Below, piece by piece: positions 28,101 to 42,553 of a stretch of 50,950 nt of DNA. The stretch lies in assembly GCA_964464055.1 (NCBI GenBank), contig CAYXEO010000006.1, positions 1,293 through 52,242 of the forward strand. Direction: 5' to 3'. Under the pieces are notes generated by a model that was given only the letters and a program-made list of their open reading frames with translations, did not search any database and was not told the origin of the DNA. The position numbers and the translations under genes are program-made. Within the stretch, counting starts at the first letter, position 1, and each line of letters opens with the position of its first letter. The DNA comes from an uncultured Methanosarcinales archaeon. GTDB lineage: Archaea; Nanobdellota; Nanobdellia; Woesearchaeales; GW2011-AR9.

Positions 28101-28636
28101 TAGGGTTCTTTATGATGTTAGGTGGAAGTGGTTATTTAGTTTATTATTATATGTACACTCCTGAAGGAAAGAAGAGTGCTTTGGGTGTTACAGTTAGGCC
28201 AGTTGGAGTTAGTGGAGTTAAAAGACCAACAAGTGTTGTGGGGCAAAAGCCGGTTGTTAAGAAACCAAGTGTATCTTGGAAAGAAAGAATAAATCAACTA
28301 CGTACCAGTCACACAGACAAATTAAAAACACATAAAAGAAAAAGTTTATTTGGTACTTTTGGTAAAGACTCAACAGAAATCCCGCATTTGAAAAAAGTGT
28401 TAAGGATGGACAGACCACACCAAGAGAAAGTAAAAGTTATGGCGGACCATTATACAGAACATAAAGAAGAAATTAAACCAGGATTAAAACATGGTGAGAA
28501 GAGTTTGTTTAATCGGTTGGAACAAATATCTAAACAAACTAAAGAGAAGAAAGTTGGAACAGTAGTAAGTAAAACTGAGGCGAAAGATATTTTCGCGAAA
28601 TTAAAAGGTATTAGTAATAAACGAAAAGAGAATTGA
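22151..28636 (+). CDS. Giant (2161 aa) type I membrane surface protein, multi-domain putative adhesin
   Basis: The leader is MALKKRGLFSVVLLVFLLVLFSG. A Cys module paralogous to the 380-aa protein spans aa 38-178. Two CarboxypepD_reg-like repeats follow (LNISVKDETGVVIQGVNVELVG..., ELQGTITGEDGTLLANAKVSIAG...), then an FN3-like segment. About eight beta-sandwich-like modules end in x-F-x-V-D-x-x-x-P (for example IKFTVDTTSPTI and DSAGNWGEF). TSP3-like calcium motifs follow (DQDNDGFMDSCDDCPD, DTDGDSLPD, DSDDNGVTDD, DFDGDGYNNYEEY). The C-terminus has a P/T/D linker, the TM ILAWILFLLGFFMMLGGSGYLVYYYM and a basic tail. Confidence 0.9.
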   Translation: MALKKRGLFSVVLLVFLLVLFSGSIISEDEDGAISVGGCYYYPEASEDYYCISDTLYSEASADCADYDGCEVDQYFSAGLDCSEMDICDAILCNADCSFSSTVGKCTQLGGEEINDEDYDLWCNPGCCIIEQAPFCGFVSKRFECQQTAINFLGSDSGWDFINPAGMTSSDCTQTHCGGEGATSGLNISVKDETGVVIQGVNVELVGYGKSDITSVDGTVSFSNLVAGSYNVEVSSEGYFTQTVTILVEEGETISHPFTLLEAEGQVELQGTITGEDGTLLANAKVSIAGVMSDFTFTNDTGGYTLTDLPFGNYTIKASKSGYQSAEQNVTLAAEIFIVDFTLSETAFVGISGQTFVDFEGGGTGEAVYGVKIYIDGMFKGVSKPTPEPGNYEFEITVDEEADESETHTISAIYMDYEFAEEEFTISAGQSTIMALLLTRYVGECSEVGDEKPVEEFSVSHVLGKAELNLKWRKPCLEVVGYLVTKTDNEGDNYSFSISSDQINHLDDEVEWGKSYTYEIITNYDDSSSEIVTYGPITVGDEECEDKYHAETGWESFCIAENSETEQFERKSTWTCNNENTLVPIKNCAEMDGEGESYYCSVINSLEAGCKDTGGCKQFGTPFGLYYSADLCYGGNDVQTSADAENYCYFENTDTVAQECKSCHEVESCFDYQSQDACLIDNCLGDTCNWVNGSANNLMLDYGMILPELVTPETGHGYCVEKDYKKDDKCSLCGPDIPPSSLFENYYCTPEVCSGLGGCFSVFTLSACESCGTHPTKEVNCYAYSTALECAGEFGNSIYKSPATGEISLSEDRCEWGRCLWNGNPGSNVGSCVKDGNADKIDDCSLFTSAGDVTACRKDVSAPESKVLPEGVNILSYGHPNVTFYGDDHYHQYSNQRNVMGQVGYCLTPTDSDECIGTSGEDKFTYVDYEGKLQEEFLEVEMINSSYLDGKIIKGDTYKLKYFSLDKYYNQENMKQTFVFIDNVKPEFEHEIETEITGDIADVTIYLSGMEEMMSCEFSLEQTMPPGNTEHLSLSRDAEEKEVVFVGVGGVKHELNITCTDDRDNVQLVSDKIILNLDQDIQLIYPAMGGAISENEFVFKVSTSVGASCTLNKDDGEKVVDFNIIDEVGKIHETTMVSGFVQKEYNGEYQVICHDFYTEEEHVAFFDFVVDFMGPDTTLYLEEGARSEIIAPQKNNGLPNHGWEEYFVDSVNVTFECIEEGVACAESYYCLGDSCPAVAGTGYILFSEPLVVEETTQICYYSKDVSDNPTYPLCGTLFVEGYGIFLESPTLHYYQDEQWGVSNQPNFNFVFSTKVETSECKFDFVPGFNYDSLPDYKMKLPDADYKYVFTNFPESVYTEFSESGSSKAIYIKCKDLLGELGPEQKINLEFDPSAPKIENAYANPVNILDDVETELNVITDDKTLCKYSDNSEGQGSADYQIMEGTFPGYDGKIMNLTHQEIFAIALAPGIFKKDYSLNTMCSNGAGDISEIKELTFNVDFSALGGILSVSPEGYIPDTNVTLTVETNKNAVCLYKLEGVYTSMVGTGGKLHTAQLSGLVEKEYIYPIKCDLSGHKVESEIKFTVDTTSPTITGVDDGGYSCGTNKIKVMVYTDEESIGGYEYEIYDLGEVEQLAAVKNSSETEAEGEEEESSSTADYTSNYYDWGYGSSTDETESSPSVSTPIVSVEDAVTTGVETLVSTGTLGPETPLEVPLTDLSDTHKYLVKVRAGDSAGNWGEFVASDGFLIVDDDFAECEIDENLGVIFTKNNSCTHINVVMKAQTKLGVGEFNYGVHADSGSCGTNTSYGGTSLIFDKAGWVCYYLEDTFGTNKTGKEMINFIDQDNDGFMDSCDDCPDTPAGKIAGPDGCADGQVSVAESQKDTDGDSLPDIWEKINSQEGCLLNYMAIDSDDNGVTDDLEDFDGDGYNNYEEYISGYNPCLADAPIKGNESLEPTDEPGGPDTTDTPYEPTGDGSATILAWILFLLGFFMMLGGSGYLVYYYMYTPEGKKSALGVTVRPVGVSGVKRPTSVVGQKPVVKKPSVSWKERINQLRTSHTDKLKTHKRKSLFGTFGKDSTEIPHLKKVLRMDRPHQEKVKVMADHYTEHKEEIKPGLKHGEKSLFNRLEQISKQTKEKKVGTVVSKTEAKDIFAKLKGISNKRKEN

Positions 28637-28676
28637 GTGATTTAAGAGATGGTAAATGTAAGATGAATAAAAAAAG

Positions 28677-28763
28677 ATGGGTAAAAAAGCCATGACCATC
28701 AACACAATGCTCACATTCGTTGCGCCTTGTATTGATATTTTTAAGGACGGTGAGATAAGATGA
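28677..28763 (+). pseudogene. Relic pilin-like 5' fragment (28-codon mini-ORF) in the spacer
   Basis: MGKKAMTINTMLTFVAPCIDIFKDGEIR mimics the next gene's N-terminus MNKKAMAIGQVFMFLVAALTFALI. It is preceded by a second abortive start, ATGAATAAAAAAAGA, at 28663. Its TGA overlaps ATG 28760 as ATGA. Confidence 0.3.
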
Positions 28764-29347
28764 ATAAAAAAGCTATGGCGATAGGGCAAGTATTTATGTT
28801 TTTAGTAGCGGCGTTAACATTCGCATTAATTATGATTTTTGGGTACAAAGCAATAAACGATTTTATGGCTAGTGGCGAAAATGTTGCTTTTGTACAATTT
28901 AAAACAGATTTAGAAACTTCTGTTAAGAAAATTTATAGTGAATATGGTGCTGTGCGAGTGAAAGAGTATTTTCCCCCGATGAAATACACCCAAATTTGTT
29001 TTGTTGATTTGGACGCAGAACCAGAATCTGGAGAGTTAGAGGAGTTATGTGCAGAAAATCAAGCGGCTTGTATCGCTTGGGAAAGTGCGCAAGAAGAAAG
29101 AGAAATTAATGGAGAAACCATTAAAGGATACAACACTATTGATGAAAACGTATTTTTAACACCTTCTGGAGATGTTAAATTAAAAGTTCATCGATTAAGT
29201 GTGATGGAACTTGATGAAGATGGCGAGGAAATTGGTACAAAAGGATATTTATGCGAAGATATTAAAGCTGGTAAATTTTCATTAGTATTAGAGGGTAAGG
29301 GCGATCGAACAATGTTATCAAATGTTCCAAAGGTCGCTAATGAATAA
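28760..29347 (+). CDS. Pilin-like protein (class III-type N-terminus), 195 aa
   Basis: MNKKA|MAIGQVFMFLVAALTFALIMIF, followed by an acidic globular part with four Cys. Confidence 0.75.
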   Translation: MNKKAMAIGQVFMFLVAALTFALIMIFGYKAINDFMASGENVAFVQFKTDLETSVKKIYSEYGAVRVKEYFPPMKYTQICFVDLDAEPESGELEELCAENQAACIAWESAQEEREINGETIKGYNTIDENVFLTPSGDVKLKVHRLSVMELDEDGEEIGTKGYLCEDIKAGKFSLVLEGKGDRTMLSNVPKVANE

Positions 29348-29428
29348 ATAGCCACATTCGTTTCGTTTGTGTTTTATAAATGTTATATGTTTTATTAATT
29401 AACTTGTATAAACGTAAAAGCAAAAAAG

Positions 29429-30562
29429 ATGACTCAAAAGAAAGCACAAATCGCCATAACATTTAACTGGATATACATTGCTATAGCTGGGGCGGTGATT
29501 TTGATGTTTTTTGTCGGTATTGTAGTAAAACAACAAGCCTCTTCTGAAAAGAATTTAGTTATTAATGTAGTAACGACCATGAAATCTATTTTTACTGGTG
29601 CAGGTGTTTCTGAGAAGACTAAGAACTTTATTAGTACCAGTAGCTTGAAAGATTACACTTTATATTTCGATTGTTATGGTGGTGTGAGTGAGTTTGGGAT
29701 AAAAGACCAAGAGATGCGGATGCAAGAATTAATCCATCCAATTTTTTCACCTTACGAATTAAAAACAAATAAAATTATCACCTGGAGTTTGCCTTACAAA
29801 TTACCTTATAAAATAATTGATTTTCTTTTTGTAACTTCTGATAACACAATCTATTATATTGCCGGTGATGGCAATGGATTTGTTGGTGAGTTTATTAATG
29901 CCACAGAAGATTTTGGGAATGTGAAAATGTTCGGAAAAATTGAAGATTATAATTTAATTGAAATAGGTAATAGTTATCAAGTGAGGTTCATCGATTTTGA
30001 TAGTACCACTAACATTTGTGAAAATTGTGGCGTACCAAGTTCTTTATGGGATTTGCCGGACGATAAAGTTACTGCGGTTTCTTTTTCCGGAACTTTGTTT
30101 AACAAAGTCACATATTTCCAAAAAGAAGGAACTCAATGGAAGAAAACTAATGATGAAGATGTACGTGTCGTTTCTTTAGGTGGGGAAAGGGACGCTGCAA
30201 AGTATGCCGCAATTTTTTCTGCTGATGGAGAAATGTATAATTGTAATATGAAAAAGGCATTTCAGCGGTTAGAAGTACTTAATGAGGTTTATGGTGGTAG
30301 TGAAATTAGTAATTATCAACCAGGTAATAAATTATTAGAATTAATAGAGATTTACGAACCATTAAAATCCACTAAACCGTTATGTATTGGACATTTGGAA
30401 TTGTTCGATGATAATCTGAAGTATGCGTTAGGAGATCATCAAGTAAACACACTTTCATGCATGATTTCACAGGAATCTAGTTGTTTAAAAGCTGTAGAAA
30501 GTGCGGTGGCAATAAAAAAATTGAACGAAGATCTGAATAGAGATTGTTTAACTTTATATTGA
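29429..30562 (+). CDS. Pilin-like protein, 377 aa
   Basis: MTQKKA|QIAITFNWIYIAIAGAVILMFFVGIVV. No recognisable domain after the helix. Confidence 0.75.
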   Translation: MTQKKAQIAITFNWIYIAIAGAVILMFFVGIVVKQQASSEKNLVINVVTTMKSIFTGAGVSEKTKNFISTSSLKDYTLYFDCYGGVSEFGIKDQEMRMQELIHPIFSPYELKTNKIITWSLPYKLPYKIIDFLFVTSDNTIYYIAGDGNGFVGEFINATEDFGNVKMFGKIEDYNLIEIGNSYQVRFIDFDSTTNICENCGVPSSLWDLPDDKVTAVSFSGTLFNKVTYFQKEGTQWKKTNDEDVRVVSLGGERDAAKYAAIFSADGEMYNCNMKKAFQRLEVLNEVYGGSEISNYQPGNKLLELIEIYEPLKSTKPLCIGHLELFDDNLKYALGDHQVNTLSCMISQESSCLKAVESAVAIKKLNEDLNRDCLTLY

Positions 30563-30579
30563 GCACAAAAAACAATAAA

Positions 30580-31095
30580 ATGGGTAAAAACAAAAACAAA
30601 GGAAGGAGAAATAAAAAAGGTCAAGCTAGATTATCAGAGTCAGTAGCAGTAATGTTTATTTTCTTTGTTTTAGTTTTGTTCGGGATAATGTTTTATTATA
30701 AATATTCACAAATAGCGATGGTTGAGAAAGAAGAAAGATTAGTTGATGAACGAGCTATAGATATGACTTTAAGAACTTTATTTTTACCAGAACTAATGTG
30801 TACTAGGGGTAAGGCAGAACCGGAAGATAATTGTGTTGACATGATGAAAGTTAGACATGTGAATAACACTTTTCAATATTTTGATTACTATTTTAATTTG
30901 TTTGGTTATGCCAAGATAGTGGTATATGAAACTTATCCAGGTAACAATAATTGGGTACTTTATGACAGACAAAGAATTAATACTTCAATGGAATATCGTC
31001 CGACATTTTTCATCGTCACCTTGAAAGATGAAGCAAGCAATTTGGTGGAAGCAGATTATAGGTTTGGATATTTAGAAGTGGGGATTTATACTTGA
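30580..31095 (+). CDS. Pilin-like protein, 171 aa
   Basis: ATG 30580 is preferred over the track's TTG 30544, which overlaps the previous gene. The N-terminus is MGKNKNKGRRNKKG|QARLSESVAVMFIFFVLVLFGIMFYY. Confidence 0.7.
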   Translation: MGKNKNKGRRNKKGQARLSESVAVMFIFFVLVLFGIMFYYKYSQIAMVEKEERLVDERAIDMTLRTLFLPELMCTRGKAEPEDNCVDMMKVRHVNNTFQYFDYYFNLFGYAKIVVYETYPGNNNWVLYDRQRINTSMEYRPTFFIVTLKDEASNLVEADYRFGYLEVGIYT

Positions 31096-31110
31096 TAAGT
31101 GGTTGTAGAA

Positions 31111-31668
31111 ATGAAATTTAAAAAAGGGAATAAACGAGCACAAATGGAAATGGCCGGATTAGTTGTCATAGTTATACTTATTACGCTTGGGATGTTATTC
31201 ATGGCACAGTTTGCAATGAAGGATGACGGGAAGAAAAAGATATTTACCAGAAAAGGTTTAGCTTACAGTGCTATGGGGGGGTTCATGAAAGTTTCGATTA
31301 ATGATTCGCAGTGTTCACCAGGATATATTGGTAGTCAAAGCCCAAGGTTAGGAAAGGAGTTAATAGAAGATTGCGCCAATAATCCGTCTGGCGTGAGTGA
31401 TTCGATTTATAATTGTCGTGGGTTACATACTTGTGAGTTTTTACAACAGTTTATCACAGAACAGTTAAATGAAACATTAGGTGTTTGGGGTAAGGATTAC
31501 ATTTTCACTTCTAAACTAATTATTCCAGACACAGAAAATGTAGTTAAACTTTTTGATTATATTAAAGGTGGTAATGGTTGTCCGAAATGGAAAGATCGTG
31601 ATGGGTCAGGATTATTCCCTATACACACAGGTAGTGGTTTAGTAGAAAATGAGTTGTATTTGTGTTAA
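31111..31668 (+). CDS. Pilin-like protein, 185 aa
   Basis: ATG 31111 is preferred over GTG 31099. The N-terminus is MKFKKGNKRA|QMEMAGLVVIVILITLGMLFMAQF. Confidence 0.7.
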   Translation: MKFKKGNKRAQMEMAGLVVIVILITLGMLFMAQFAMKDDGKKKIFTRKGLAYSAMGGFMKVSINDSQCSPGYIGSQSPRLGKELIEDCANNPSGVSDSIYNCRGLHTCEFLQQFITEQLNETLGVWGKDYIFTSKLIIPDTENVVKLFDYIKGGNGCPKWKDRDGSGLFPIHTGSGLVENELYLC

Positions 31669-31693
31669 ATAAATCAACCTTACCAACGTAAGA

Positions 31694-31701
31694 TTTATAT
31701 A
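31694..31701 (+). promoter_or_regulatory. Candidate TATA box ahead of the small pilin-like genes
   Basis: TTTATATA lies in the 93-nt spacer. A second TTTATATTA is at about 31731. The SD-like TGAGGT at 31746-31751 precedes ATG 31762. Confidence 0.3.
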
Positions 31702-31761
31702 GTATTTTTTCTTCCTTTACTTTATATTATAGTTAATAAAAAAAATGAGGTAAGATAAAAA

Positions 31762-32037
31762 ATGTTTAATAATAAAAAAGGTCAAGGTATGTCGTTGAAT
31801 GTTGTTATTGTAGCGGCGTTAGCACTGATAGTTTTGGTAGTTCTAATAATGGTTTTTACTGGGCGAATGGGAAATTTCCAAGAAGGTATAAGTAACGAAG
31901 GTAAAGCAGAATTGGTAAAGATGCGAGTTAATTATGGATCTTGTCATCCAGGTGCAGTTCCTGAAGCAGGGTTTGATTTAGAACTTAGTAAAGCAGAAAC
32001 AACCGAAGAAAAAGCATACGCAAAAGCTTTATTCTAA
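31762..32037 (+). CDS. Small pilin-like protein (91 aa), candidate major subunit
   Basis: MFNNKKG|QGMSLNVVIVAALALIVLVVLIMVFTG has the K-G-Q layout typical of archaeal type IV pilins. The gene is short and has its own spacer, promoter-like signal and SD. Confidence 0.75.
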   Translation: MFNNKKGQGMSLNVVIVAALALIVLVVLIMVFTGRMGNFQEGISNEGKAELVKMRVNYGSCHPGAVPEAGFDLELSKAETTEEKAYAKALF

Positions 32038-32114
32038 GAAGAAATTGCTAATTGTAAACAAATGAGTGATGATAAAGGTGTTTGTGAAGACTCTGGATGT
32101 GTTTGGAATTAAAA

Positions 32115-32420
32115 ATGAAACTTAACAAAAAAGGTTCCGCAAACATGTGGTGGATCATCATCGGCGCTGTTGTGGCGTTAGTGGTCATGATAGTTTTGAT
32201 GATGTTGTTCACTGGTAAAAGCAACAAATTAGAAATTGGACTTATGGATTGTGCAGGTAAAGGAGGTGAATGTCTGGCTGTAAATGAATGTAAAGATACA
32301 AAAGATGTTGAGGCGACAATATCTAGGGCGTTTGATTGTCCAACTGATACAGGTACCCAATCAATAACTGGAAATATTTGTTGTTTTAAGGATGCTAAAA
32401 CAACTAACCTCAACAAATAA
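32115..32420 (+). CDS. Small pilin-like protein (101 aa)
   Basis: ATG 32115 is preferred over the track start 32097. The N-terminus is MKLNKKG|SANMWWIIIGAVVALVVMIVLMMLFTG. The mature part has six Cys. Confidence 0.75.
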   Translation: MKLNKKGSANMWWIIIGAVVALVVMIVLMMLFTGKSNKLEIGLMDCAGKGGECLAVNECKDTKDVEATISRAFDCPTDTGTQSITGNICCFKDAKTTNLNK

Positions 32421-32423
32421 ACC

Positions 32424-32552
32424 ATGTTTCGTTCAAAAAAAGGTGTTGACTGGATGAGTCCAAGTATGTTGGTGATAATTATATTAGCTATTATCTTGGG
32501 CGTTTCTTTACTTTATTATGTTTGGTCAATGAAAGCGAGGTTAGCAATATGA
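32424..32552 (+). CDS. Unlisted 42-aa pilin-like mini-protein
   Basis: This ORF is below the track's size cutoff. It reads MFRSKKG|VDWMSPSMLVIIILAIILGVSLLYYVWSMKARLAI. It starts 3 nt after the previous stop, and its TGA overlaps the next ATG as ATGA. Confidence 0.5.
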   Translation: MFRSKKGVDWMSPSMLVIIILAIILGVSLLYYVWSMKARLAI

Positions 32553-32704
32553 AATCTAAAAAAGCGACGATAGAGATGAGCAAATTGATTGTGTTCATTT
32601 TGGTTGTAATTTTGTTAATTTTTTTGATGGTTTGGTACGGTTACCTTGCAGAAGGTAGGGGTGGATTAGGAGACATGATGGGGAAAATGTTAGATTTTAT
32701 GTAA
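32549..32704 (+). CDS. 51-aa pilin-like mini-protein
   Basis: ATG 32549 is preferred over TTG 32522. The sequence is MKSKKA|TIEMSKLIVFILVVILLIFLMVWYGYLAEGRGGLGDMMGKMLDFM. Confidence 0.5.
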   Translation: MKSKKATIEMSKLIVFILVVILLIFLMVWYGYLAEGRGGLGDMMGKMLDFM

Positions 32705-32705
32705 A

Positions 32706-33491
32706 ATGGTAGCGATGAACAAATTAGTAACATTCATTATTGTGATAATGTTCGCAGGAATTTTTGCTGCGGTACTTTATTCTCCCAGTGGGGCGTTTGA
32801 GAAAGGTAAAGGGGCATTGGAAGGTGCAAAAGAAATTGTGCCAAATATATCTATTGGAGATAAAGCATTAATGGGTGGAACACCAGAGGTAGCTTCTATT
32901 CATCGACAAGAAATTACTAATATGGTTCGAATTATTAATGACATGCTGAATAGTTCAAAATCAAGTTCTGACTGTTTTAATAATTATGGTGGATTTACAG
33001 ATCTCGGAGAAGACGATGGGGCAGTAACTATCAGTTTAGCATACAATGGAGTGAATGGCACACAATTAACTGTTAATGGTGGTGTAGGAGGAAAACAGAT
33101 TATTACAGATTTACGAGAATTTTTTCCTAACATGCGTCCTTGTGTAATTGCTACTGGAAATATTGCGAGTAATTTTTATGAAAAATTTATCGAAGGTGAT
33201 GATGTATCTAATTATTATAAGTTTGTAAATTCAATAACTATAAAATACGATTTTGATAACTGGAATGAAAACAGAATTGATTATGATGGTAGTGGGCCAA
33301 TTGATTTTGAAGGACATACATGGCTGTTTACTCCGGATAACACCCACATTTGTTTTTTTCCAACAGAAGATGGAAATGCAGGTTGTGATGGAGATGGTTC
33401 TGAAGGTTTAGATGATGATTGTCTAATTGATACAACAGAAAAAACAAGTGTTCCTTATCGTATAAACAATGGACCATTAAAAAAATGTTAA
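32706..33491 (+). CDS. N-terminally anchored or secreted protein (261 aa), the only island member lacking the KK[GA] motif
   Basis: MVAMNKLVTFIIVIMFAGIFAAVLY is followed by a globular part ending in the acidic Cys motif GNAGCDGDGSEGLDDDC. Confidence 0.75.
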   Translation: MVAMNKLVTFIIVIMFAGIFAAVLYSPSGAFEKGKGALEGAKEIVPNISIGDKALMGGTPEVASIHRQEITNMVRIINDMLNSSKSSSDCFNNYGGFTDLGEDDGAVTISLAYNGVNGTQLTVNGGVGGKQIITDLREFFPNMRPCVIATGNIASNFYEKFIEGDDVSNYYKFVNSITIKYDFDNWNENRIDYDGSGPIDFEGHTWLFTPDNTHICFFPTEDGNAGCDGDGSEGLDDDCLIDTTEKTSVPYRINNGPLKKC

Positions 33492-34483
33492 GAAAGGTGA
33501 ATAAAAAAGGGTTGGCTGCTGGACAGCTGGTAATGATTATAATTGTTCTAGTTGCTTTTGTGTTGATTGCTGGAACTGTTTCTAGATTTATGTCTAAAGC
33601 AGAACCGAAAGAAGCAGAAATCATGTGTTATAATAGTATTAACATGCGGGTTCAAAGTTCTATCCAAGTAAATTCCGGATTAGTTGAAGGAAATTTAAAA
33701 TTAATTCCACCAATGTGTAAAACGATAGATTTGAAAATAACAGGTAATCGGGAAGAATTATTGGAACAAATTGCTTATGCTTCTGCTAGATGTTGGTGGA
33801 TGTTTGGCGAGGGGAGATATGAAGATTTGTTACGTACTACAGGAGAATCTATCACAGTTTTACCAAGTATATTTAATGTTGATCATTATGATAATAAATG
33901 TTTTAATTGTTATACTCTTTTAGTTGATCAAGATGAGATAGAAGGAGGTAACATTGGCCCTGAAGATATTCAAAAATATATGGTTGAAAAAGATCATAGA
34001 CAAATAAAAGGGTTAAGTTATTTAGATTATATTCAAAGTTATGGTGGCCCTGGAAGGATGGTTTTTACTATGCCCGTAATAGCTCCCAGAGAATCTTATT
34101 CAATTTCTATCGTGCCTAAATTGGCACAAAAGACGGGTAGTTTCTGGAATTCACTTGGAAAATTTATTGTGGGCGCCGCAGTAGTTATAGCTGTCGTAGG
34201 TGGTGTGGCCTGTGTTGTGGCAACTGCGGGTGCTTGTGCTGCCGTACTTGGTCCTGCAGGAGCAGCTTTAGCAGCGACAGGCGCAGTTATGACAGGTTCA
34301 TCTTTGGCAATTGGTATTACTGTTGCAGGAGGTCTTGCGGCAGGGTACGTGGGTACAAAGAGTTACATGGAAATGGTTAACAAATTTTTTGATGCGTCTG
34401 AAAGAGATGTAAGTTCTGTTTTTGTTAGTTTTTTAGAAGTTGGTCAACAAAAATGTGGGTCTGGAGACCTAGCGGGAGAATAA
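33485..34483 (+). CDS. Pilin-like N-terminus plus C-terminal Gly/Ala-rich multi-TM region (332 aa)
   Basis: The N-terminus is MLRKVNKKG|LAAGQLVMIIIVLVAFVLIAG. The C-terminus is GKFIVGAAVVIAVVGGVACVVATAGACAAVLGPAGAALAATGAVMTGSSLAIGITVAGGLAAGYVG. It overlaps the previous gene by 7 nt. Confidence 0.75.
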   Translation: MLRKVNKKGLAAGQLVMIIIVLVAFVLIAGTVSRFMSKAEPKEAEIMCYNSINMRVQSSIQVNSGLVEGNLKLIPPMCKTIDLKITGNREELLEQIAYASARCWWMFGEGRYEDLLRTTGESITVLPSIFNVDHYDNKCFNCYTLLVDQDEIEGGNIGPEDIQKYMVEKDHRQIKGLSYLDYIQSYGGPGRMVFTMPVIAPRESYSISIVPKLAQKTGSFWNSLGKFIVGAAVVIAVVGGVACVVATAGACAAVLGPAGAALAATGAVMTGSSLAIGITVAGGLAAGYVGTKSYMEMVNKFFDASERDVSSVFVSFLEVGQQKCGSGDLAGE

Positions 34484-34516
34484 ATTTATAATTATAAAAA
34501 AAGAGGTATGACGAAA

Positions 34517-35965
34517 ATGTTTAATGATAAAAAAGGGATGGCCATGAGCACGTTAGTGAAGATGATTATCCCGTTAATTGTTTTAGTGATAATTGGGATT
34601 GCCTTATTTCCCAAATTTAACCCGATGGTTTCTAGTGCGACAGAACTAGCAGATTTCGGTGACTGTGATAAAGATAAAGTACAAAATTATTTTGATAAAT
34701 GTCCTTGCATAACCACTCTCTCTGATGAATCGGAAGATTTGCGTGGATGCCCTAAGGGGACCAGCGTAAATAAATCTAATTGGGATCAACAAACATGTAA
34801 CTGGTTTATTACTAATTTGGAAGACCCTGAAAAAGATCCGGTAGAAAGTTGCGGTGAAGATAACGAAAGTGGTTGTGCTGGAGTTGGCGGTGTAGAAGGT
34901 GTTTATAAAACCAGATGTGGCCATGTAGGAGAAACAGCGATTGAATTGCCTACGATAGAACAAGCCGATGAAGATGCCGTGACAATTAATACTAATGTTG
35001 CGTTGGAATCCTTAACAGTAAACAAATGGGATAACCCAAATTGGTTAAATTCAGATTTATTTTTTGAACGTGCACAAGGTCCTTCTACTTCTTGGTCACA
35101 TAAAGGTGGCCATTTTAATTGGATTCAAATAAAACCTAATATTAGTAACACAGGTAATATCAAAGTTGCAAATACATTTAACGTTGAAGTTCAGGTGTGT
35201 AATTCTGCCGGCACTAAATGTAAAAGGAAAAATTTGTACGATTCTTCTGGCACAGATTCGCATGGAGCCCCAACCGGGACGCCAATCCCGGTTTATAGTG
35301 TTAATGGATTGGATGTGAATGAGTCTGATGGAGAAAATAAGTTTGTTCAGATAGGGTATAATGGCGATTATTGTGATGGTCTTGGTGACCATGACTGTTT
35401 GGTTAAATTAAAGATTTACGGCATTAAAGATATAGATAAAACGGATAATGAAATCAGTTTTGTGTTTAAATACACAGATCAAATACATAATCCAAAAATG
35501 AGTCTAACTTGGTACCAGTTAGAGTTTGTAGTAGGTAATAATGGCGATAATGATGAGTATGATAATTTCTGTCAGAAATGCACTATTAGTCAAGCCAAAA
35601 ATAAATTTTACAAAAAATGGGGTGCCCATCATGGCGCATATCCAGACTCTGCTTCTGGGAATAATTGTGTTATTTTTGCTGTTGATGACGATGGTGGTAT
35701 GGAAGATTTAGGTTCTGGTGAAGTTCAAGAGGGGTTCATATTACACGCTGATAAGTCCGTTAAACTTTCTCTAACAAATGTACAAGGAGAAGTTGATGCG
35801 TATACTGGTGTTCAAAAAAGAAATGCAGCTGCACAAACAGACGGTGACGTGATCTGTTACAATAACGCATGGTATTGGTGCAGTAAAAGTAGTAATGATG
35901 AGTTAGTTGTTGTTGGTAACGATTATTACGTTTGTAACAATTTGAACTGGATCAAAAGGCAATGA
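34517..35965 (+). CDS. Pilin-like protein, 482 aa
   Basis: ATG 34517 is preferred because AGAGGT sits 10 nt upstream. The N-terminus MFNDKKG|MAMSTLVKMIIPLIVLVIIGIALF parallels the MFNNKKGQGMS of the 31762 gene. The track start is 34508. Confidence 0.75.
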   Translation: MFNDKKGMAMSTLVKMIIPLIVLVIIGIALFPKFNPMVSSATELADFGDCDKDKVQNYFDKCPCITTLSDESEDLRGCPKGTSVNKSNWDQQTCNWFITNLEDPEKDPVESCGEDNESGCAGVGGVEGVYKTRCGHVGETAIELPTIEQADEDAVTINTNVALESLTVNKWDNPNWLNSDLFFERAQGPSTSWSHKGGHFNWIQIKPNISNTGNIKVANTFNVEVQVCNSAGTKCKRKNLYDSSGTDSHGAPTGTPIPVYSVNGLDVNESDGENKFVQIGYNGDYCDGLGDHDCLVKLKIYGIKDIDKTDNEISFVFKYTDQIHNPKMSLTWYQLEFVVGNNGDNDEYDNFCQKCTISQAKNKFYKKWGAHHGAYPDSASGNNCVIFAVDDDGGMEDLGSGEVQEGFILHADKSVKLSLTNVQGEVDAYTGVQKRNAAAQTDGDVICYNNAWYWCSKSSNDELVVVGNDYYVCNNLNWIKRQ

Positions 35966-35992
35966 TTTTATTTTTTTTAATTTTTTTTCAAA

Positions 35993-36613
35993 ATGGTAAA
36001 CAAAAAAGGGATAATGTTAAAATTTTTAACGACGATTTTGTTAGCGATAGTTATTTTTGCACCTGCTTGTATGGTTTCTTCTAAATTTTTTCGGCTCAGT
36101 GCACAAGCGAATGACAATTTTGCTGAATTCGTAGAAAAGATAGACAAACTGGGTAATTATGGTCAACAGGGTGAACAAAGTAGTTTCGTGTTGATTAAAG
36201 ATAAAAATACATGTATTGCTAATTTGTGGTCTGGTTCCGATTATCATGAAAGATATACTCGTTGTTCTTCTGGTCAAGTAGAAGAAACGTGGCTCGGAGT
36301 AGGCAAATCATGCCAAGGGAAAGATTGTATTTGTTTGATAAAAGAGCTTAGTGTCACAGAAACAGACAGGAAAAGTTCTAATTGTGGTTCTGAAAAAAGA
36401 GTGAATGAAATAACGCCAACAAAAATAGCTTGTATTTCTGTACCAGACAATTATTATATTTATGGATTAAGTTGGAGAGATTGGTGTCGGTTTGGTGACG
36501 ATTCACGAAGAACAACCATGAGTATGGTAAAAGAAGGTAACAAAGTTTATGTTTGTGAAGCAGGTAATTGTGATATTCCTGAAACGCCGGAAAAACACCT
36601 ATACAAAGGATAA
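35993..36613 (+). CDS. Pilin-like protein, 206 aa
   Basis: MVNKKG|IMLKFLTTILLAIVIFAPA, with a Cys-rich mature part. Confidence 0.75.
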   Translation: MVNKKGIMLKFLTTILLAIVIFAPACMVSSKFFRLSAQANDNFAEFVEKIDKLGNYGQQGEQSSFVLIKDKNTCIANLWSGSDYHERYTRCSSGQVEETWLGVGKSCQGKDCICLIKELSVTETDRKSSNCGSEKRVNEITPTKIACISVPDNYYIYGLSWRDWCRFGDDSRRTTMSMVKEGNKVYVCEAGNCDIPETPEKHLYKG

Positions 36614-36616
36614 AAA

Positions 36617-37027
36617 ATGAATAAAAAAGCTAACAGTACAATAATGATAATTTTTGAAGTGTTGACCTTATTAGCGATAGCTTACATGATGATTACCGTG
36701 GGACTTGTTTATGGCAGTTCTGATACGGTTTTCAAAGTTAATACCGCGGAAGAAATAAGGATGATGGTGGACACGTTAGCAGGGATACCCGGGGAAGCAA
36801 AAGTTCAATTCCCTCATAATGTTTCAGGTTACAATTTGAAATTGGAAAAAGGTACAATTGCAGTTTTTAAGGTTGGTGAAGAAGAAAGTAGCGGTAAATG
36901 GGTCACTAGAAATTTTTTTTTACCTGCTGGTTTTGATGCCAAAGGTATATCAAGAAACGAAACAACTTTTTGTTTAGAGAAAGAAAGGTTGCAAACGAAA
37001 GTAATGATAAAAATGGTGTCTTGTTAA
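36617..37027 (+). CDS. Pilin-like protein, 136 aa
   Basis: MNKKA|NSTIMIIFEVLTLLAIAYMMITVGLVY. It starts 3 nt after the previous stop. Confidence 0.75.
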   Translation: MNKKANSTIMIIFEVLTLLAIAYMMITVGLVYGSSDTVFKVNTAEEIRMMVDTLAGIPGEAKVQFPHNVSGYNLKLEKGTIAVFKVGEEESSGKWVTRNFFLPAGFDAKGISRNETTFCLEKERLQTKVMIKMVSC

Positions 37028-37028
37028 G

Positions 37029-37646
37029 ATGACAGAATTATTAAAGGGAATAAATAAAAAAGGACCATCTTTGTTTTCCTCACATTCGTTGCGGAAACTT
37101 CAGATCTCCAAAAAAGGACCATCTTCGTTTTCCTCACATTCGTTGCGGAAACTTCAGATCTCCAAAAAAGGACAATTCGACGTAGCTCGGAAAACAATAT
37201 TTTGGATGTTGGCGGGGGTTATGATTACCATAGTCATATTTGTTTTCGCTTTAATCTTGGGAGGTCATAAAGCTAACTTGATGAGTGTCCCTTTAGACGT
37301 TAAAGCAGAATTGATCTCGTTACGATTTACAAATTCTCCAGAATGTTTCGCTTACCAAGATAATGTTAGCAAAGTAGTTTTCCCAGGGATAATCGATTTA
37401 GAAAAATTTAACAAAACAACTTTAGAGAGATGTTATTCTACCGAAGGGATAGGTGGGATTAAAACCCTCAATTTTAGGTTAGAATTACAAAATACAAATT
37501 TGAAATTATTAACAGATAATTATTATAGTGCTGATGTAACAGATTCAACTATTTTTAAGGAAGTGTTAGTAAAATATGAGAATGGTTTAGAGAAAGATAC
37601 ATTGGCAATTTATGTACAAGAAAAAATTAAAGGGTACGAACAATGA
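37029..37646 (+). CDS. Pilin-like protein with triplicated KKG site (205 aa)
   Basis: MTELLKGINKKG-PSLFSSHSLRKLQISKKG-PSSFSSHSLRKLQISKKG|QFDVARKTIFWMLAGVMITIVIFVFALIL. The two 18-aa inserts come from a 54-bp tandem repeat. Confidence 0.7.
   Translation: MTELLKGINKKGPSLFSSHSLRKLQISKKGPSSFSSHSLRKLQISKKGQFDVARKTIFWMLAGVMITIVIFVFALILGGHKANLMSVPLDVKAELISLRFTNSPECFAYQDNVSKVVFPGIIDLEKFNKTTLERCYSTEGIGGIKTLNFRLELQNTNLKLLTDNYYSADVTDSTIFKEVLVKYENGLEKDTLAIYVQEKIKGYEQ
37056..37173 (+). repeat. 54-bp tandem repeat, 2.2 copies, in frame inside the 5' end of the 37029 gene
   Basis: Unit AAAAAAGGACCATCTTTGTTTTCCTCACATTCGTTGCGGAAACTTCAGATCTCC occupies 37056-37109 and repeats at 37110-37163 with one mismatch (TTG/TCG). 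A partial third copy, AAAAAAGGAC, is at 37164-37173. Confidence 0.9.
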
Positions 37647-38041
37647 AGAAGTGGAATAAAAAAGGGATGATGGACGATTTTTTTGATTTCATATTTACTA
37701 CCGTCTCTCTTTTTTTCTTATTGTTTTTTATTTCGTTAGTATTCAATGGTTCGGTAAATAGTTCACATGAAACAAGTGCAGAAAATGTTGCTGATTTTAA
37801 GATTAAAGATGCGGCGATAAACAATTTATTATTACAAAATTATCTTACAGAAGTAAATATTGATAAAATTGATTCATCCATCTCTAAAAGTAATTTATGG
37901 AACGGGAAAGTAATTACAAGTTGTACTGATTATACTACTGAAAAAGATTGCGAAAGCGACCCGATGGGGAAAGGTGGAGGGTTTTGTAATTGGGCAAGTT
38001 CATTTTGTTATTATGGTAATCCTGCGATAATGGTTGGTTAA
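37643..38041 (+). CDS. Pilin-like protein, 132 aa
   Basis: MKKWNKKG|MMDDFFDFIFTTVSLFFLLFFISLVF. It has an ATGA overlap with the previous gene. Confidence 0.75.
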   Translation: MKKWNKKGMMDDFFDFIFTTVSLFFLLFFISLVFNGSVNSSHETSAENVADFKIKDAAINNLLLQNYLTEVNIDKIDSSISKSNLWNGKVITSCTDYTTEKDCESDPMGKGGGFCNWASSFCYYGNPAIMVG

Positions 38042-38044
38042 AAA

Positions 38045-38833
38045 ATGAATAAAAAAGGAACGTTATTTCACTGGATATTTTTTATAGTTTTAATAGCGTT
38101 AGCGGTATTTTTCATGTATAATAATAAAGAGGTGCTTAATGTAAGCGTGAAAGGAGAATGGTCCACAGATTTTTTGATGAAAAATTATATCCCTGCAAAA
38201 AAGATGCTTTTAGAAAATAATATTGTAGCTAAAAAAACTGCTCAAGAAACGTTTTGGGAATTGGCTGAATACGGTGGTTATTCAGAGAACATTTCTTCCG
38301 ACTGTGGAAAATATCAGGGGGCAAATTTATGGAACAATGGTAATACTCCCTGTTTTCCAAACGCAAATAACATATTTAATTTGGCAATGAGCAAAAATAT
38401 TCAAGAAAATTCTGATAAACAATTTTGGAACATTGTTATTAATAACAATTTTGTTTCTGGTAAAGGTGACGATAATATGATTATAGAAAGTGATAACACC
38501 TATACTTTTAATGATGGGTTTGGGGTTTGGATATTTTATAAACTGGAAGATTATGATTCTTTGTTTGGCAAGGCTACAAAATTAGTTAACGCTTGTAATA
38601 ATGCAACAAATTCCACAACTTTGAAAATTTGTCTCGATGAAAATAAACCTAGCAGTTGGAAATACAGATCTTGTCAATCTGAAAGTTATTATGAACAAGC
38701 TCGGCAAGTTAAATTTTGTGCGGAAAGCCCTTACAATGTGCATTTATTAGCTTCTTCTGGACAGAAAGAAATAGTACATTATACCTTCGCACTAGATTTC
38801 ACTAACCAAACAACCCCATCAATTACCACATAA
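38045..38833 (+). CDS. Pilin-like protein, 262 aa (last gene of the island)
   Basis: MNKKG|TLFHWIFFIVLIALAVFFMY. It is followed by a 110-nt spacer with T-runs. Confidence 0.75.
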   Translation: MNKKGTLFHWIFFIVLIALAVFFMYNNKEVLNVSVKGEWSTDFLMKNYIPAKKMLLENNIVAKKTAQETFWELAEYGGYSENISSDCGKYQGANLWNNGNTPCFPNANNIFNLAMSKNIQENSDKQFWNIVINNNFVSGKGDDNMIIESDNTYTFNDGFGVWIFYKLEDYDSLFGKATKLVNACNNATNSTTLKICLDENKPSSWKYRSCQSESYYEQARQVKFCAESPYNVHLLASSGQKEIVHYTFALDFTNQTTPSITT

Positions 38834-38943: not shown

Positions 38944-40041
38944 ATGTATAAAGTTCCATTAAACGAAATAAAAGAAAAAATAGTGTCTTCTGGGAAGATG
39001 AGTTCTGAAGAGTTAGATGCGAAAATCAAATCAAAAGTTAGCGAATTGTCCGGGTTAATCAGTGAAGAAGGTGCAGCACATATTGTAGCTAACGAACTAA
39101 ATATTGAGTTGGTTAGTTCTGAACAAAAGCATTTAAAAATTAAAGAAGTTTATGCAGGGATGCGAAACATTTCCACGGTGGGAAAAGTTGTACGTAAATT
39201 TGATGTGAACGAATTTGCAAAGGGTGATTCTACAGGAAAAGTATGTTCTATAATTTTAGGTGATGAAACAGGCACAATTAGGGTGGTTTTTTGGAATGAA
39301 CAAGTAGAACAACTTACAGGAGTTAAAGATGGAGACATTTTGGCCCTGAAAGAAGTTTATGCTAAAGAAAATAAAAACAGTAACAATAACAACAAAGAGA
39401 TTCATTTAGGTGATCGTGGAGAAGTTGAAATTAATCCGAAAGATATAGAAATTAGCGATGTTCGACAAGGTACAACTTATGAACGGAGAAAAATTGAAGA
39501 ATTACAAGATGGGGATGCCGGCGTAGAGGTATTGGGCACAGTTGTACAAATTTATGATCCAAGATTTTTTCATATCTGTCCAGAATGTAACAAACGGGCT
39601 AACGAAACGGAAGGCAAATACCAATGTGTTGAGCACGGTGAAGTCACTCCAGCACTTTCTTATGTACTTAATTTGGTTGTTGACGATGGCACAGGTAATA
39701 TCAGGTGCGTATTTTGGAAAAACCAAATTAACCATTTACTAGACAAAACAGAAAATGATATGGGCAAATTTAAAGAGGGCTTGTCACCATTTGAAGAAGT
39801 TAAAACTGATTTGTTGGGTAGTTTATTTAAGTTATTGGGAAGAATTAAACGGAACGAAATGTTTGATAGGTTAGAATTTAATGTGCAGATAGTTGAGAAA
39901 GCCAAAGCTAAGGAAGAAATTAATAAGTTGGAAAGTGTAACAGAGAAAAAAGAAGTAGTTGCAGGAGAATCAGTCGCAGATGAACCTGTCATAGAAGAAA
40001 CAAACGTCACGGATGAACCAAAAACAGAACCAATAAATTAA
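38944..40041 (+). CDS. rpa: Replication protein A (archaeal RPA/RFA ssDNA-binding protein)
   Basis: 365 aa. The N-terminal domain is SELSGLISEEGAAHIVANELNIEL. The OB folds are GDETGTIRVVFWNEQ and VDDGTGNIRCVFWKNQ, and the zinc ribbon is CPECNKR...YQCVEHG. The SD-like GGGGTGA lies upstream. Confidence 0.85.
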   Translation: MYKVPLNEIKEKIVSSGKMSSEELDAKIKSKVSELSGLISEEGAAHIVANELNIELVSSEQKHLKIKEVYAGMRNISTVGKVVRKFDVNEFAKGDSTGKVCSIILGDETGTIRVVFWNEQVEQLTGVKDGDILALKEVYAKENKNSNNNNKEIHLGDRGEVEINPKDIEISDVRQGTTYERRKIEELQDGDAGVEVLGTVVQIYDPRFFHICPECNKRANETEGKYQCVEHGEVTPALSYVLNLVVDDGTGNIRCVFWKNQINHLLDKTENDMGKFKEGLSPFEEVKTDLLGSLFKLLGRIKRNEMFDRLEFNVQIVEKAKAKEEINKLESVTEKKEVVAGESVADEPVIEETNVTDEPKTEPIN

Positions 40042-40120
40042 TTAGAACTAACAAAATTACATTTTATTGAAGATGTTAAAAAAGCGGAATTAGGATTATT
40101 CACTTTCAAATAGCAAAAAG

Positions 40121-40128
40121 TTTATAAA
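40121..40128 (+). promoter_or_regulatory. Candidate TATA box
   Basis: TTTATAAA sits about 30 nt upstream of ATG 40151. Confidence 0.3.
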
Positions 40129-40150
40129 TTCTTTTTTATTTGGTTACATT

Positions 40151-40411
40151 ATGGTAAATATTGAAGTAATGAACAAAACTTTAACTGACTTATTGGGTTG
40201 TGATGCACAAGTATATTCTATTACAGACACAATTAAAACTTCTGAAGAAGCTTTAAAAGTTGGTGAATTATAATATCTGTGGATTGACAATGCCCTTTGT
40301 GGTAATTATAATTTCTGTGATGTTGGGATGGATATGTTAAAAGCAAGTTATCAAAAATTACAAGATAAATTTCCTAAGGCGGCAGAAGAATTATCTACGA
40401 AGTTTTATTAA
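40151..40411 (+). pseudogene. Small gene of unknown function interrupted by an in-frame TAA
   Basis: 40 codons (MVNIEVMNKTLTDLLGCDAQVYSITDTIKTSEEALKVGEL), then TAA at 40271-40273. A further 45 sense codons follow in the same frame (YLWIDNALCGNYNFCDVGMDMLKASYQKLQDKFPKAAEELSTKFY) up to TAA 40409-40411. Confidence 0.35.
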
Positions 40412-40432
40412 TCTTTACTTTTTATTTTTTTT

Positions 40433-40888
40433 ATGCTTTTTCATACTCACTTATTATTTGGACTTTTTTTCTTTATCGTTTTTAGAATTTTTTTCAGTGG
40501 TGGGAACGAAGTTTTATTTTTAGCATTAGTTCTTTTAGGTAGCGTTTTACCAGACCTTGACCAAAACAGGAGTAAAATTCATCGTTGGAGCGGGTTAATT
40601 GGTATCATCGTGGGTTATTTTGTTAAGCATCGTGGGATTTTACATTCTGTTTTTTTTATGTTTTTTAGTTTCGCAGTAGCAAGTTTTTTTTTTGGTAGTT
40701 ATTATGGGTTTGGACTTTTATTAGGGGTGACAGCGCATTTAGTAGGTGATGGTTTAACACCGGCAGGGATAAAATTGTTTTATCCTATTTCTAAGATGCG
40801 TATCAAAGGTCCAATCAAAGTAGGTAGCATAGGTGAGTGGTTAGTTTTGATTGGTTTAGCAATTTTGATTTTGAAAGAATTCTTGTGA
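40433..40888 (+). CDS. Membrane-bound metal-dependent hydrolase, YdjM/DUF457-like
   Basis: 151 aa. It shows MLFHTHLLFG..., LPDLDQ, HRGILHS and AHLVGDGLTPAGIKLFYP, with four to five hydrophobic segments. Confidence 0.55.
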   Translation: MLFHTHLLFGLFFFIVFRIFFSGGNEVLFLALVLLGSVLPDLDQNRSKIHRWSGLIGIIVGYFVKHRGILHSVFFMFFSFAVASFFFGSYYGFGLLLGVTAHLVGDGLTPAGIKLFYPISKMRIKGPIKVGSIGEWLVLIGLAILILKEFL

Positions 40889-40939
40889 TTTTTTATGGGT
40901 TAGTTTTGTGCATTTGTTAATTTCTAAATTTAATAGCGT

Positions 40940-41055
40940 GTTTGTCTGATTTAGCCAACCGTCTGTCCAGTGTCACAGTGTTTCTAGTTTCAAAATTCTC
41001 CCGTTACAAGGTTCTAACTTCTTCAAAAACGTCCACTGGACAGGTCCGGACAAAC
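40940..41055. other. Long imperfect inverted repeat in a GC-richer spacer (possible structured RNA or regulatory element)
   Basis: GTTTGTC (40940-40946) pairs with GACAAAC (41049-41055). CTGTCCAGTG (40963-40972) pairs with CACTGGACAG (41034-41043). A second hairpin, CCATCAAC-AAAATC-GTTGGTGG, is at about 41112-41133. No tRNA, SRP or RNase P signature was recognised. Confidence 0.25.
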
Positions 41056-41168
41056 TATATAAACTACCTATGCCTTATAGAATCTGTTGCTCAAAACCGA
41101 GCCACACCTCGCCATCAACAAAATCGTTGGTGGTTGAAATAAAATGCGAAAGCAAGAGGAATTAAAAA

Positions 41169-41540: not shown

Positions 41541-41562
41541 TAATAAATGAGGTAATTAAAAA

Positions 41563-42504: not shown

Positions 42505-42553
42505 GGTTGATTTTTTCTTTTTTTCTTTTTTCTAGATTTTAAGAGAGGTGTTT

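Follow-up and report, generated by a model that had tools for sequence, protein, structure and literature searches.

The DNA analysed here (hereinafter designated the window) is a 50,950-nucleotide stretch of contig CAYXEO010000006.1 (GenBank assembly GCA_964464055.1) from an uncultured archaeon placed by GTDB in the Woesearchaeales. The window has a GC content of 33–35%, uses AAA for 85% of its Lys codons and encodes, among others, an archaeal MCM helicase with an intein, TBP, RNase P p30, RPA, RadA and PEP synthase. Our subject is a block of 21 head-to-tail plus-strand genes at positions 12461–38833, separated by intergenic gaps of −7 to 123 bp and encoding five large Cys-rich proteins (hereinafter designated A721, B1092, C984, D380 and E2161) and sixteen smaller ones (g1–g16), most of which share one type of N-terminus. 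Several samples yielded metagenome contigs, up to 120 kb long, that contain identical or 99.98%-identical copies of the window. The nearest relatives of its proteins come from metagenome-assembled genomes (MAGs) labelled Woesearchaeota, Nanoarchaeota or Nanoarchaeia, which places the source among the uncultured DPANN archaea.

In fifteen of the sixteen smaller proteins (28760–38833, plus strand) and in C984, a [KR][KR][GA] tripeptide closes a short basic leader and is followed by about 22–27 hydrophobic residues. The fifteen N-termini quoted in an earlier note on this DNA are all present as written (arrows denote the putative cut site). The run opens with g1 (28760–29347, 195 aa), g2 (29429–30562, 377 aa), g3 (30580–31095, 171 aa, with its ATG inside the open reading frame (ORF) 30544–31095) and g4 (31111–31668, 185 aa), whose pilin-like N-termini read MNKKA↓MAIGQVF, MTQKKA↓QIAITFNW (with Gln at +1), RRNKKG↓QARLSES and MKFKKGNKRA↓QMEMAGLVV, respectively; that of g1 is of the class III type. 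The next two proteins, g5 (31762–32037, 91 aa, MFNNKKG↓QGMSLNVVIVAALALIVLVVL) and the small, Cys-rich and pilin-like g6 (32115–32420, 101 aa, MKLNKKG↓SANMWWIIIGAV), are paralogous in the helix (E = 1e-7 over residues 4–43), and g7 (32424–32552, 42 aa, MFRSKKG↓VDWMSPSMLVIIILAI) and g8 (32549–32704, 51 aa, MKSKKA↓TIEMSKLIVFILVV) resemble helix-only mini-pilins. The sole exception is g9 (32706–33491, 261 aa, MVAMNKLVTFIIV), correctly singled out in the earlier note, which has an N-terminal membrane anchor without KK[GA]. Downstream of it lie g10 (33485–34483, 332 aa, MLRKVNKKG↓LAAGQLVMIII), which also has a C-terminal Gly/Ala-rich membrane segment, the large, Cys-rich and pilin-like g11 (34517–35965, 482 aa, MFNDKKG↓MAMSTLVKMII), g12 (35993–36613, 206 aa, MVNKKG↓IMLKFLTTILLAIV), g13 (36617–37027, 136 aa, MNKKA↓NSTIMIIFEVL), g14 (37029–37646, 205 aa from the start at 37029, with the real site ISKKG↓QFDVARKTIFWMLAG at 37164), g15 (37643–38041, 132 aa, MKKWNKKG↓MMDDFFDFIF) and g16 (38045–38833, 262 aa, MNKKG↓TLFHWIFFIVL). 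Further upstream, C984 (17981–20935, plus strand, 984 aa, 40 Cys) combines a long basic leader with NKKA↓QITIFMIVGLMLLF and thus resembles a giant pilin-like protein; that it carries the motif had been claimed before and extends to its orthologues.

The leaders before the putative cut site are 4–13 residues long, except in g14, where a start at 37029 would give 48 residues owing to a repeat. Position −1 is G or A in 15 of 15 motif genes among g1–g16 and position −2 is K or R in all of them, and the putative processing site follows a short charged leader and precedes the hydrophobic domain; archaeal class III signals are characterized by G, A or S at −1, a charged residue at −2 and a processing site before the H-domain (PMC4371748). 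Gln occupies +1 only in g2, g3, g4, g5, g14 and C984, with M, L, I, S, T, V or N in the others. No Cys lies near the motif in the cluster proteins, and lipoprotein-type signals were rejected on this ground. All-against-all BLASTP of the cluster proteins finds similarity confined to roughly the first 30–40 residues, in agreement with the earlier statement that the mature parts are mutually dissimilar.

The motif is restricted to the block. A six-frame scan of the window for [KR][KR][GA] followed by a hydrophobic 15-mer returned 18 genes, all on the plus strand at 12470–38051, namely the fifteen of g1–g16 together with C984, A721 and E2161, and no match outside these genes, in other frames or elsewhere in the window. 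Within the first 25 residues, [KR][KR][GA] is present in none of the 20 other window proteins (Fisher p = 2.9e-9). For A721 and E2161, which the earlier note had counted as arguable members, KK[KR]G is indeed present, and their membership in the module is doubtful because their N-termini resemble ordinary Sec signal peptides.

The block and its motif are widely conserved. More than 130 homologues of g10 exist, all annotated as 'hypothetical', and a pattern scan for g10 relatives gave matches in 200 GTDB species genomes, from which 80 loci of other species were drawn and examined. On the strand of the g10 match, 79 of these 80 loci carry 1–16 N-termini of the same type, mostly at least five, compared with 0–2 on the other strand. 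The loci include a long form (L009–L056) and a short form (about 30 loci, L059–L088). By tblastn, E2161, g1–g6 and g9–g16 each have orthologues at 23–69% identity in 19–48 long-form loci, and the very short g7 and g8 were found in only 7 and 2 loci, respectively. Judged by locus coordinates, the orthologues of the g genes apparently stand in the same order, and they keep the motif; the g1 orthologues in 32 loci, for example, keep KK[GA]↓MGVGQVF. D380 and E2161 are kept directly upstream of g1 in relatives, C984 has more than 190 homologues, and long-form loci also contain RPA, YdjM and RadA genes, which every gene map that was read places after the run, as is the case in the window. Three long contigs display the order TBP (one also with MCM)–ThiI–TtuA–RNase P p30–giant protein–C984–D380–E2161–g1 and onwards. 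Because the orthologue loci and these three contigs share the arrangement, the 26-kb block as a whole constitutes a unit with conserved synteny in the clade.

We mapped the putative cut site onto the orthologues by homology and without a motif search, anchoring the g4 family on its second, internal RKG. In the resulting 508 N-termini, position −1 is G (311) or A (133), that is, G or A in 444 of 508 (87%), positions −2 and −3 are K or R in 83–87% (83% at −2), and +1 is mostly Q, L, M, I or A. When the third position is left free, in the pattern [KR][KR]X plus hydrophobic stretch, X is G or A in 593 of 1014 matches on the cluster strand versus 14 of 142 on the opposite strand. Mean within-family column identity is mostly 0.1–0.3 in the leader and 0.6–0.9 at the motif in most families, and for g1–g6 it reaches 0.63–0.81 over the 22 residues after the motif versus 0.32–0.53 over the rest of the protein (0.76 versus 0.46 in g2; 0.81 for the g4 helix). 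The helix is better conserved than the remaining protein in most families, including all of g1–g6; the helices are specific to their families, many having Gln at +1 and an acidic residue at +3 to +6, and that of g5, QGLSLNVIIVAALALIVLVVL, the putative mature N-terminus, is almost invariant. The orthologues of C984 read [KRS][GA]↓QITIFMILGLLILF after leaders of 5–40 residues. A different pattern is seen in the orthologues of E2161 and of the giant protein corresponding to A721 and B1092, in which KKRG precedes about 18 variable hydrophobic residues and then sites of the ASA↓D, AFS↓D or VQA↓A type, so that these N-termini are Sec-like as far as their sequences tell.

A variable leader, a retained KK[GA] and, in most families, a helix conserved more strongly than the remaining sequence give the N-termini a predicted class III signature, as opposed to that of Sec signals or plain membrane anchors. 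We therefore consider it highly probable that g1–g8, g10–g16 and C984 carry class III (type IV prepilin-like) signals, which would make them putative substrates of the corresponding pathway; that the cluster proteins form a classical long pilus would be a less probable proposition. An internal control is provided by g9, an anchor in the same cluster, in which the motif is absent from the window protein and from every readable orthologue N-terminus (motif identity 0.24, helix identity 0.30) and the helix is conserved no better than the rest of the protein.

Further evidence comes from the short-form loci, which are of the Pacearchaeota type and are labelled Pacearchaeota, Woesearchaeota, Nanoarchaeota and, in one case, Iainarchaeum. 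Here the run comprises 5–10 KK[GA] genes, including a g10 homologue (hhalign probability 99.9%) and a g5-like gene (98% over the helix), and in most loci (23–28) it lies between genes for an ATPase, a polytopic membrane protein and an A24 peptidase. The 770-aa ATPase, upstream of the run in 23 loci, matches Pfam T2SSE (2.8e-14), the PDB entries of afGspE (3e-24), CpaF (3e-23) and FlaI (1.5e-13) and the NCBIfam models FlaI (1e-35) and TadA (7.5e-35), both of the latter below their cut-offs, as well as, weakly and far below the family cut-off, BasE (3.2e-17). Directly after the ATPase gene in 28 loci is the gene for the 733-aa polytopic membrane protein, which has no family match, including to T2SSF or FlaJ models. 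The 276-aa Peptidase_A24 protein (8.7e-13; FlaK 3S0X, 5.6e-10) is encoded beside the homologous cluster in 24 loci. The conclusion of the earlier note that the conserved part is a targeting or processing module is thus supported, the module being of the class III/prepilin type according to the published features of such signals, the retention of motif and helix, and the T2SSE-family ATPase and A24 peptidase genes that flank this run in relatives.

The short form adjoins the same RPA, YdjM and RadA genes as the long form, and g10 is the only family recognisable along its length in both. Since g10, the g5-like gene and RPA–YdjM–RadA are common to both, the long and short forms appear from sequence to derive from a single ancestral locus. 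Motor and peptidase genes of long-form genomes would then reside elsewhere, or possibly have been lost, and the pilin set of this form would have been expanded and joined by the giant proteins. A location elsewhere is more likely than loss, because flaI, flaJ and flaK were reported in most Woesearchaeota MAGs of one study (PMC11606122).

Several observations weigh against a class III assignment. Walker A and GxGD-type regular expressions and tblastn with the short-form proteins revealed no ATPase, platform protein or A24 peptidase in the 51-kb window, the 10 kb preceding it or any long-form locus, a search that also covered the regions upstream of C984 orthologues in the three long contigs. 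In profile–profile comparison of the long- and short-form pilin families, only g10 and the g5 helix are linked, and the link between p1 and g12 is weak. Pfam-A and NCBIfam scans up to E = 1 match no pilin, archaellin or class III model to g1–g16 or C984. AlphaFold predicts a 32-residue N-terminal helix in g10 (residues 7–38; predicted local distance difference test score (pLDDT) 74.6) and, in a full-length g5 orthologue, a 44-residue helix (residues 12–55) topped by a small helical head (pLDDT 77.3); Foldseek comparison of the two models with the PDB returned nothing with E below 1 and no pilin-like fold, leaving the models compatible with pilins, without amounting to proof. The tripeptide alone is not diagnostic, since A721 and E2161 have KK[KR]G in front of signals that are apparently of the Sec type. 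Finally, type IV pilus components were stated to be missing in DPANN genomes (10.1101/2020.05.14.094862).

One rival explanation is that the N-termini are uncleaved signal anchors of type II membrane proteins, in which K-K-G/A only flanks a transmembrane helix in keeping with the positive-inside rule and each protein sits in the membrane on its own. No peptidase gene lies in or near the window, KK n-regions are common in other exported proteins of this lineage (for example ENKK↓ITIVL in the protein at 47383–49266 on the minus strand, and KKRG in E2161), and g10 has extra C-terminal membrane segments. The positive-inside rule, however, needs no G or A at −1, which most orthologues nevertheless keep, and both the anchor-type g9 inside the cluster and an anchor-type protein outside it lack this residue. 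The helix is moreover conserved residue by residue in a family-specific manner, with Gln at +1 and the acidic residue at +3 to +6, and in relatives the homologous cluster is bordered by genes for an A24 peptidase and an assembly ATPase; on balance, we judge the anchor explanation to be very unlikely. Still more improbable are ordinary Sec (class I) signals, which signal peptidase I would remove after the hydrophobic segment. A basic n-region and a hydrophobic core are common to all Sec-dependent signals, and the neighbouring giants A721, B1092, D380 and E2161 look Sec-like, as do the cut sites of the E2161 orthologues given above. Yet class I signals have an h-region of about 10–20 residues, a small-x-small site and a sequence less conserved than the mature protein, a combination apparently present in E2161, D380 and the A/B giant with its orthologues and absent from g1–g16 and C984, where the stretch spans 22–27 residues, no small-x-small c-region follows it on inspection of the translations, and the stretch is the best-conserved part of the protein. 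A discarded signal would be the least conserved part, as in the E2161 orthologues, and its removal would leave g7 and g8 with almost no mature part.

The proposal that AT-rich codon usage produces the motif as an artefact of composition, N-termini being rich in Lys and Asn everywhere, derives some plausibility from the GC content and the AAA bias of the window; the corresponding check suggested earlier, whether the motif is equally frequent in other proteins, gave the count of zero among 20 described above, and the lack of matches in other frames or on the other strand, the 11 occurrences of the underlying DNA string against 1.16 in shuffled sequences and the conservation of the motif in orthologues of about 45 species reduce its probability to a negligible level. 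A fourth explanation keeps the class III signals and differs in the product, a bindosome-like or pseudopilus-like surface assembly without a long pilus, which would position the Cys-rich domains and the giants. It accommodates the set of sixteen distinct, conserved subunits, whose Cys-rich extracellular domains are large and unrelated, their constant linkage to giant surface proteins and the weak BasE match of the short-form ATPase, which lies far below cut-off, and it has a precedent in the non-pilus bindosome subunits of Sulfolobus that use class III signals (PMC4371748). Pfam and NCBIfam scans detected no substrate-binding-protein domains, however, and g5, g7 and g8 resemble filament-forming small pilins, making this alternative unlikely, though less so than the three preceding ones.

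Returning to class III processing, the ATPase, the membrane protein and the A24 peptidase are not among the genes of the window, and for this reason we infer the cleavage in this organism by analogy, together with the formation of a filament and the role of each subunit. Each precursor would be inserted into the membrane, where a FlaK/PibD-type A24 aspartic prepilin peptidase would cut after the G/A of K-K-G/A at the cytoplasmic face, removing the basic leader of 4–13 residues (longer in C984 and possibly in g14) and leaving the conserved hydrophobic helix as the mature N-terminus. Via this helix, a FlaI/TadA-type ATPase and a membrane platform protein would extract the subunits and build a surface filament or a short pilus-like stalk. 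The best candidate for the major subunit would be g5, because it is small, has a near-invariant helix and is preceded by its own TATA-like boxes and GAGGT; g7 and g8 would be helix-only, head-less subunits, the larger, mutually unrelated Cys-rich proteins and C984 would act as minor or tip subunits, and the upstream giant proteins are probably co-expressed surface adhesins.

A bolder and rather unlikely extension holds that the conserved 26-kb block, with its 4–5 giant Cys-rich and 16 pilin-like proteins, might encode one dedicated multi-subunit surface organelle of Woesearchaeota, assembled by a type IV filament motor encoded elsewhere and serving attachment to host cells, exchange of material with them, or DNA uptake. 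The block sits between RNase P p30 and RPA–YdjM–RadA where the flanks could be read, and DNA uptake is suggested by the presence of RPA and RadA in the conserved neighbourhood. If this were true, the complexity of the organelle would exceed that of any described archaeal pilus, and the block would supply the 'pilins' hitherto missing from a group to which the literature has denied type IV pili.

Among known systems, the Epd pili of Methanococcus maripaludis, substrates of EppA ('TFF system 1'), are likewise archaeal and have cut sites K-G↓Q-[VIL] and R-A↓Q-I (KG↓QV and KG↓QI in Epd) close to the KKG↓Q and KKA↓Q of the cluster, many pilin-like genes per operon (an 11-gene cluster in Epd) and a very small major pilin; TFF system 1 was reported in some DPANN (10.64898/2026.04.22.720090). 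Unlike in the cluster, where only 6 of 16 proteins have it, Gln at +1 is invariant in Epd and required by EppA; the short-form peptidase is a 276-aa FlaK-like protein and not of the large EppA type, and the cluster proteins lack a sequence-family match in Pfam/NCBIfam, comprise sixteen subunits plus giants and, in the long form, are encoded apart from an ATPase. The PibD/FlaK substrates predicted by FlaFind share with the cluster the G/A at −1, the K/R at −2, the site before the H-domain and the short basic leader. By contrast, such substrates number 16–47 genes per model-archaeon genome and are largely scattered, whereas 15–16 stand here in one contiguous block, which is conserved across species in apparently the same order and whose proteins no existing hidden Markov model (HMM) recognises.

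Bacterial minor-pilin and pseudopilin operons (FimU–PilVWXE with PilY1 of type IVa pili, GspG–K of type II secretion systems, and ComG) and Tad/Flp pili resemble the cluster in that diverse subunits share only the N-terminal module and a large adhesin is co-encoded. Two further likenesses are the short-form ATPase, which is as close to CpaF/TadA as to FlaI, and g7 and g8, which resemble head-less Flp-type pilins. The cluster differs from these bacterial systems in its archaeal host and FlaK-like peptidase, in lacking a conserved Glu at +5 and in having three times as many subunits. Modular 'giant' pilins such as PilB of Streptococcus sanguinis (PMC8179133) parallel C984 in joining a pilin-type N-terminus to a very large extracellular module; they show no sequence or domain similarity to C984, which has a long basic leader and 40 cysteines.

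The signal and its general logic are thus already known from archaeal class III signals, from Epd, Aap and Ups pili and from bacterial minor-pilin operons. What is new are the protein families, which have no HMM match and are 'hypothetical' in every source that names them, the gathering of sixteen pilin-like genes and giants in one conserved block, and the occurrence of this block in a clade whose pilins were reported as unidentified (PMC4858521) or whose pilus systems were reported as missing (10.1101/2020.05.14.094862). Specifically, an earlier census found secretion ATPases in 'nanoarchaea' and identified no cognate pilins (PMC4858521), and the supposed absence of type IV pilus genes from DPANN was used to assign piliated ultra-small cells to bacteria (10.1101/2020.05.14.094862). 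The evidence points to a pilus-like apparatus of the cell surface that has escaped annotation, is conserved widely and relies on a signal of a known type. The Woesearchaeota and Pacearchaeota, abundant and uncultured archaea with small genomes, are thought to live attached to hosts. The set of about 16 prepilin-like genes in at least 48 species supplies specific candidates for the apparatus with which this clade attaches, or for its surface filaments, and K-K-G/A followed by a conserved helix offers a simple rule for annotating them.

At the DNA level, the motif corresponds to an A-rich 5′ string that had been pointed out together with the N-termini, and the string is real: AAYAAAAAAGS occurs 11 times in the window versus 1.16 times expected in shuffles, and 10 of the occurrences lie at the 5′ ends of cluster genes. 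Lys is encoded by AAA in 29 of 31 motif codons versus 85% elsewhere in window genes (p = 0.13), a negative result for selection at the nucleotide level. The string needs no further cause, because the N-K-K-G/A motif and the AAA codon bias predict it. It had been proposed that the string offers microhomology for recombination between paralogues, by which the N-terminal module would repeatedly be moved or swapped, an idea compatible with class III processing. In its favour, a 54-bp unit that begins exactly with AAAAAAGG is present in 2.2 tandem copies in the leader of g14; a part of it, about 30 nt long and including the 15-mer CTCACATTCGTTGCG (3 copies versus 0.01 expected), recurs after AAAAAAG upstream of g1; and the signal-like N-terminus of B1092 (MNKKKS) lies at a point internal to the fused orthologue. 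Eight to eleven nucleotides are very short for homologous exchange. Over about 45 species, each family keeps its own helix and, by coordinates, its position, no chimeras were seen in these families, and none of the loci from the 80 other species contains the repeat element. As a general driver of recombination between paralogues, the string is therefore a poor candidate, explained as it is by motif and codon bias amid a stable order and stable helices, and repeated exchange is quite improbable; the g14 repeat fits the microhomology idea as a single, suggestive case.

The g14 repeat itself spans 37056–37173, with 2.2 copies at 98% identity and a unit that starts on the KKG codons, and translates as INKKG-PSLFSSHSLRKLQ-ISKKG-PSSFSSHSLRKLQ-ISKKG↓QFDV. 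Its shared segment of about 30 nt (AAAAAAG, GACCATC and CTCACATTCGTTGCG, in this order) recurs at 28685–28724 in the spacer upstream of g1. This spacer also contains a 28-codon plus-strand mini-ORF (28677–28763) with a pilin-like start, MGKKA↓MTINTMLTFVAPCIDIFKDGEIR, reading MGKKAMTINTMLTFVAPCIDIFKDGEIR up to its stop codon, which overlaps the start of g1 by ATGA and reads the shared segment in another frame. The mini-ORF could represent either a genuine micro-gene or a 5′ copy that has degenerated. Just before it lies a decoy, ATGAATAAAAAAAGATGG, associated with a 14-bp × 2.1 repeat at 28660–28688.

Two of the smaller genes show further peculiarities. In g5, a T at 32035 creates the TAA stop that cuts the protein to 91 aa and removes the conserved C-terminal C-x9-C-x4-C-x-W part, whereas five other same-strain assemblies have an A (Lys) at this position and a g5 of 116 aa. 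The 91-aa form was recorded from two contigs, so that the candidate major subunit may truly be polymorphic for a nonsense mutation. Members of the g10 family have, besides the pilin-type N-terminus, six invariant Cys, a second membrane region that is variable and rich in Gly/Ala, and, at the C-terminus, the conserved ERDVSS...CGSGDLAGE.

Of the upstream giants, A721 and B1092 (12461–17909, plus strand) are two Cys-rich surface proteins with Sec-like N-termini, in which KK[KR]G/S and about 18 hydrophobic residues are followed by acidic residues. Their genes are 4 bp apart and match the N- and C-terminal halves of a single 1590–1774-aa protein in relatives, indicative of a gene split in the lineage of the window; B1092 has its own signal-like start, MNKKKSVLVLLMLILLVF, at the point internal to the fused orthologue mentioned above. 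D380 and E2161 (20948–28636, plus strand) are paralogous Cys-rich surface proteins, each with a predicted Sec-like signal, a membrane anchor at the C-terminus and a tail rich in Lys. E2161 contains CarboxypepD_reg domains, the only family found by the Pfam/NCBIfam scan of g1–g16 and the five giants.

In long and short forms alike, genes for RPA, a YdjM-family membrane hydrolase and RadA (38944–42504 in the window) come after the pilin-like block, and upstream of the block in readable long-form genomes lie TBP and RNase P p30, joined by MCM in the window and in one of the three long contigs. The linkage of the block to DNA-handling genes is thus long-lived. The MCM helicase gene (2336–5530, minus strand) is split by the intein, which carries a LAGLIDADG endonuclease domain; the 673-aa MCM orthologue in L092 has no intein or LAGLIDADG domain among its listed Pfam matches. 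Between RadA and a TRAM gene of the window, 42548–43414 encodes a 288-aa ORF6N-domain protein. In the related complete genome L007, TRAM directly follows RadA with no ORF6N gene between them, and for this reason the ORF6N gene is probably an inserted mobile-element or phage-type gene. Three further exported or membrane proteins are encoded on the minus strand at 46517–50540, with KKS or KK at Sec-like or anchor-like N-termini; one of these proteins has a Cys-rich N-terminal region that by eye resembles those of D380 and E2161.

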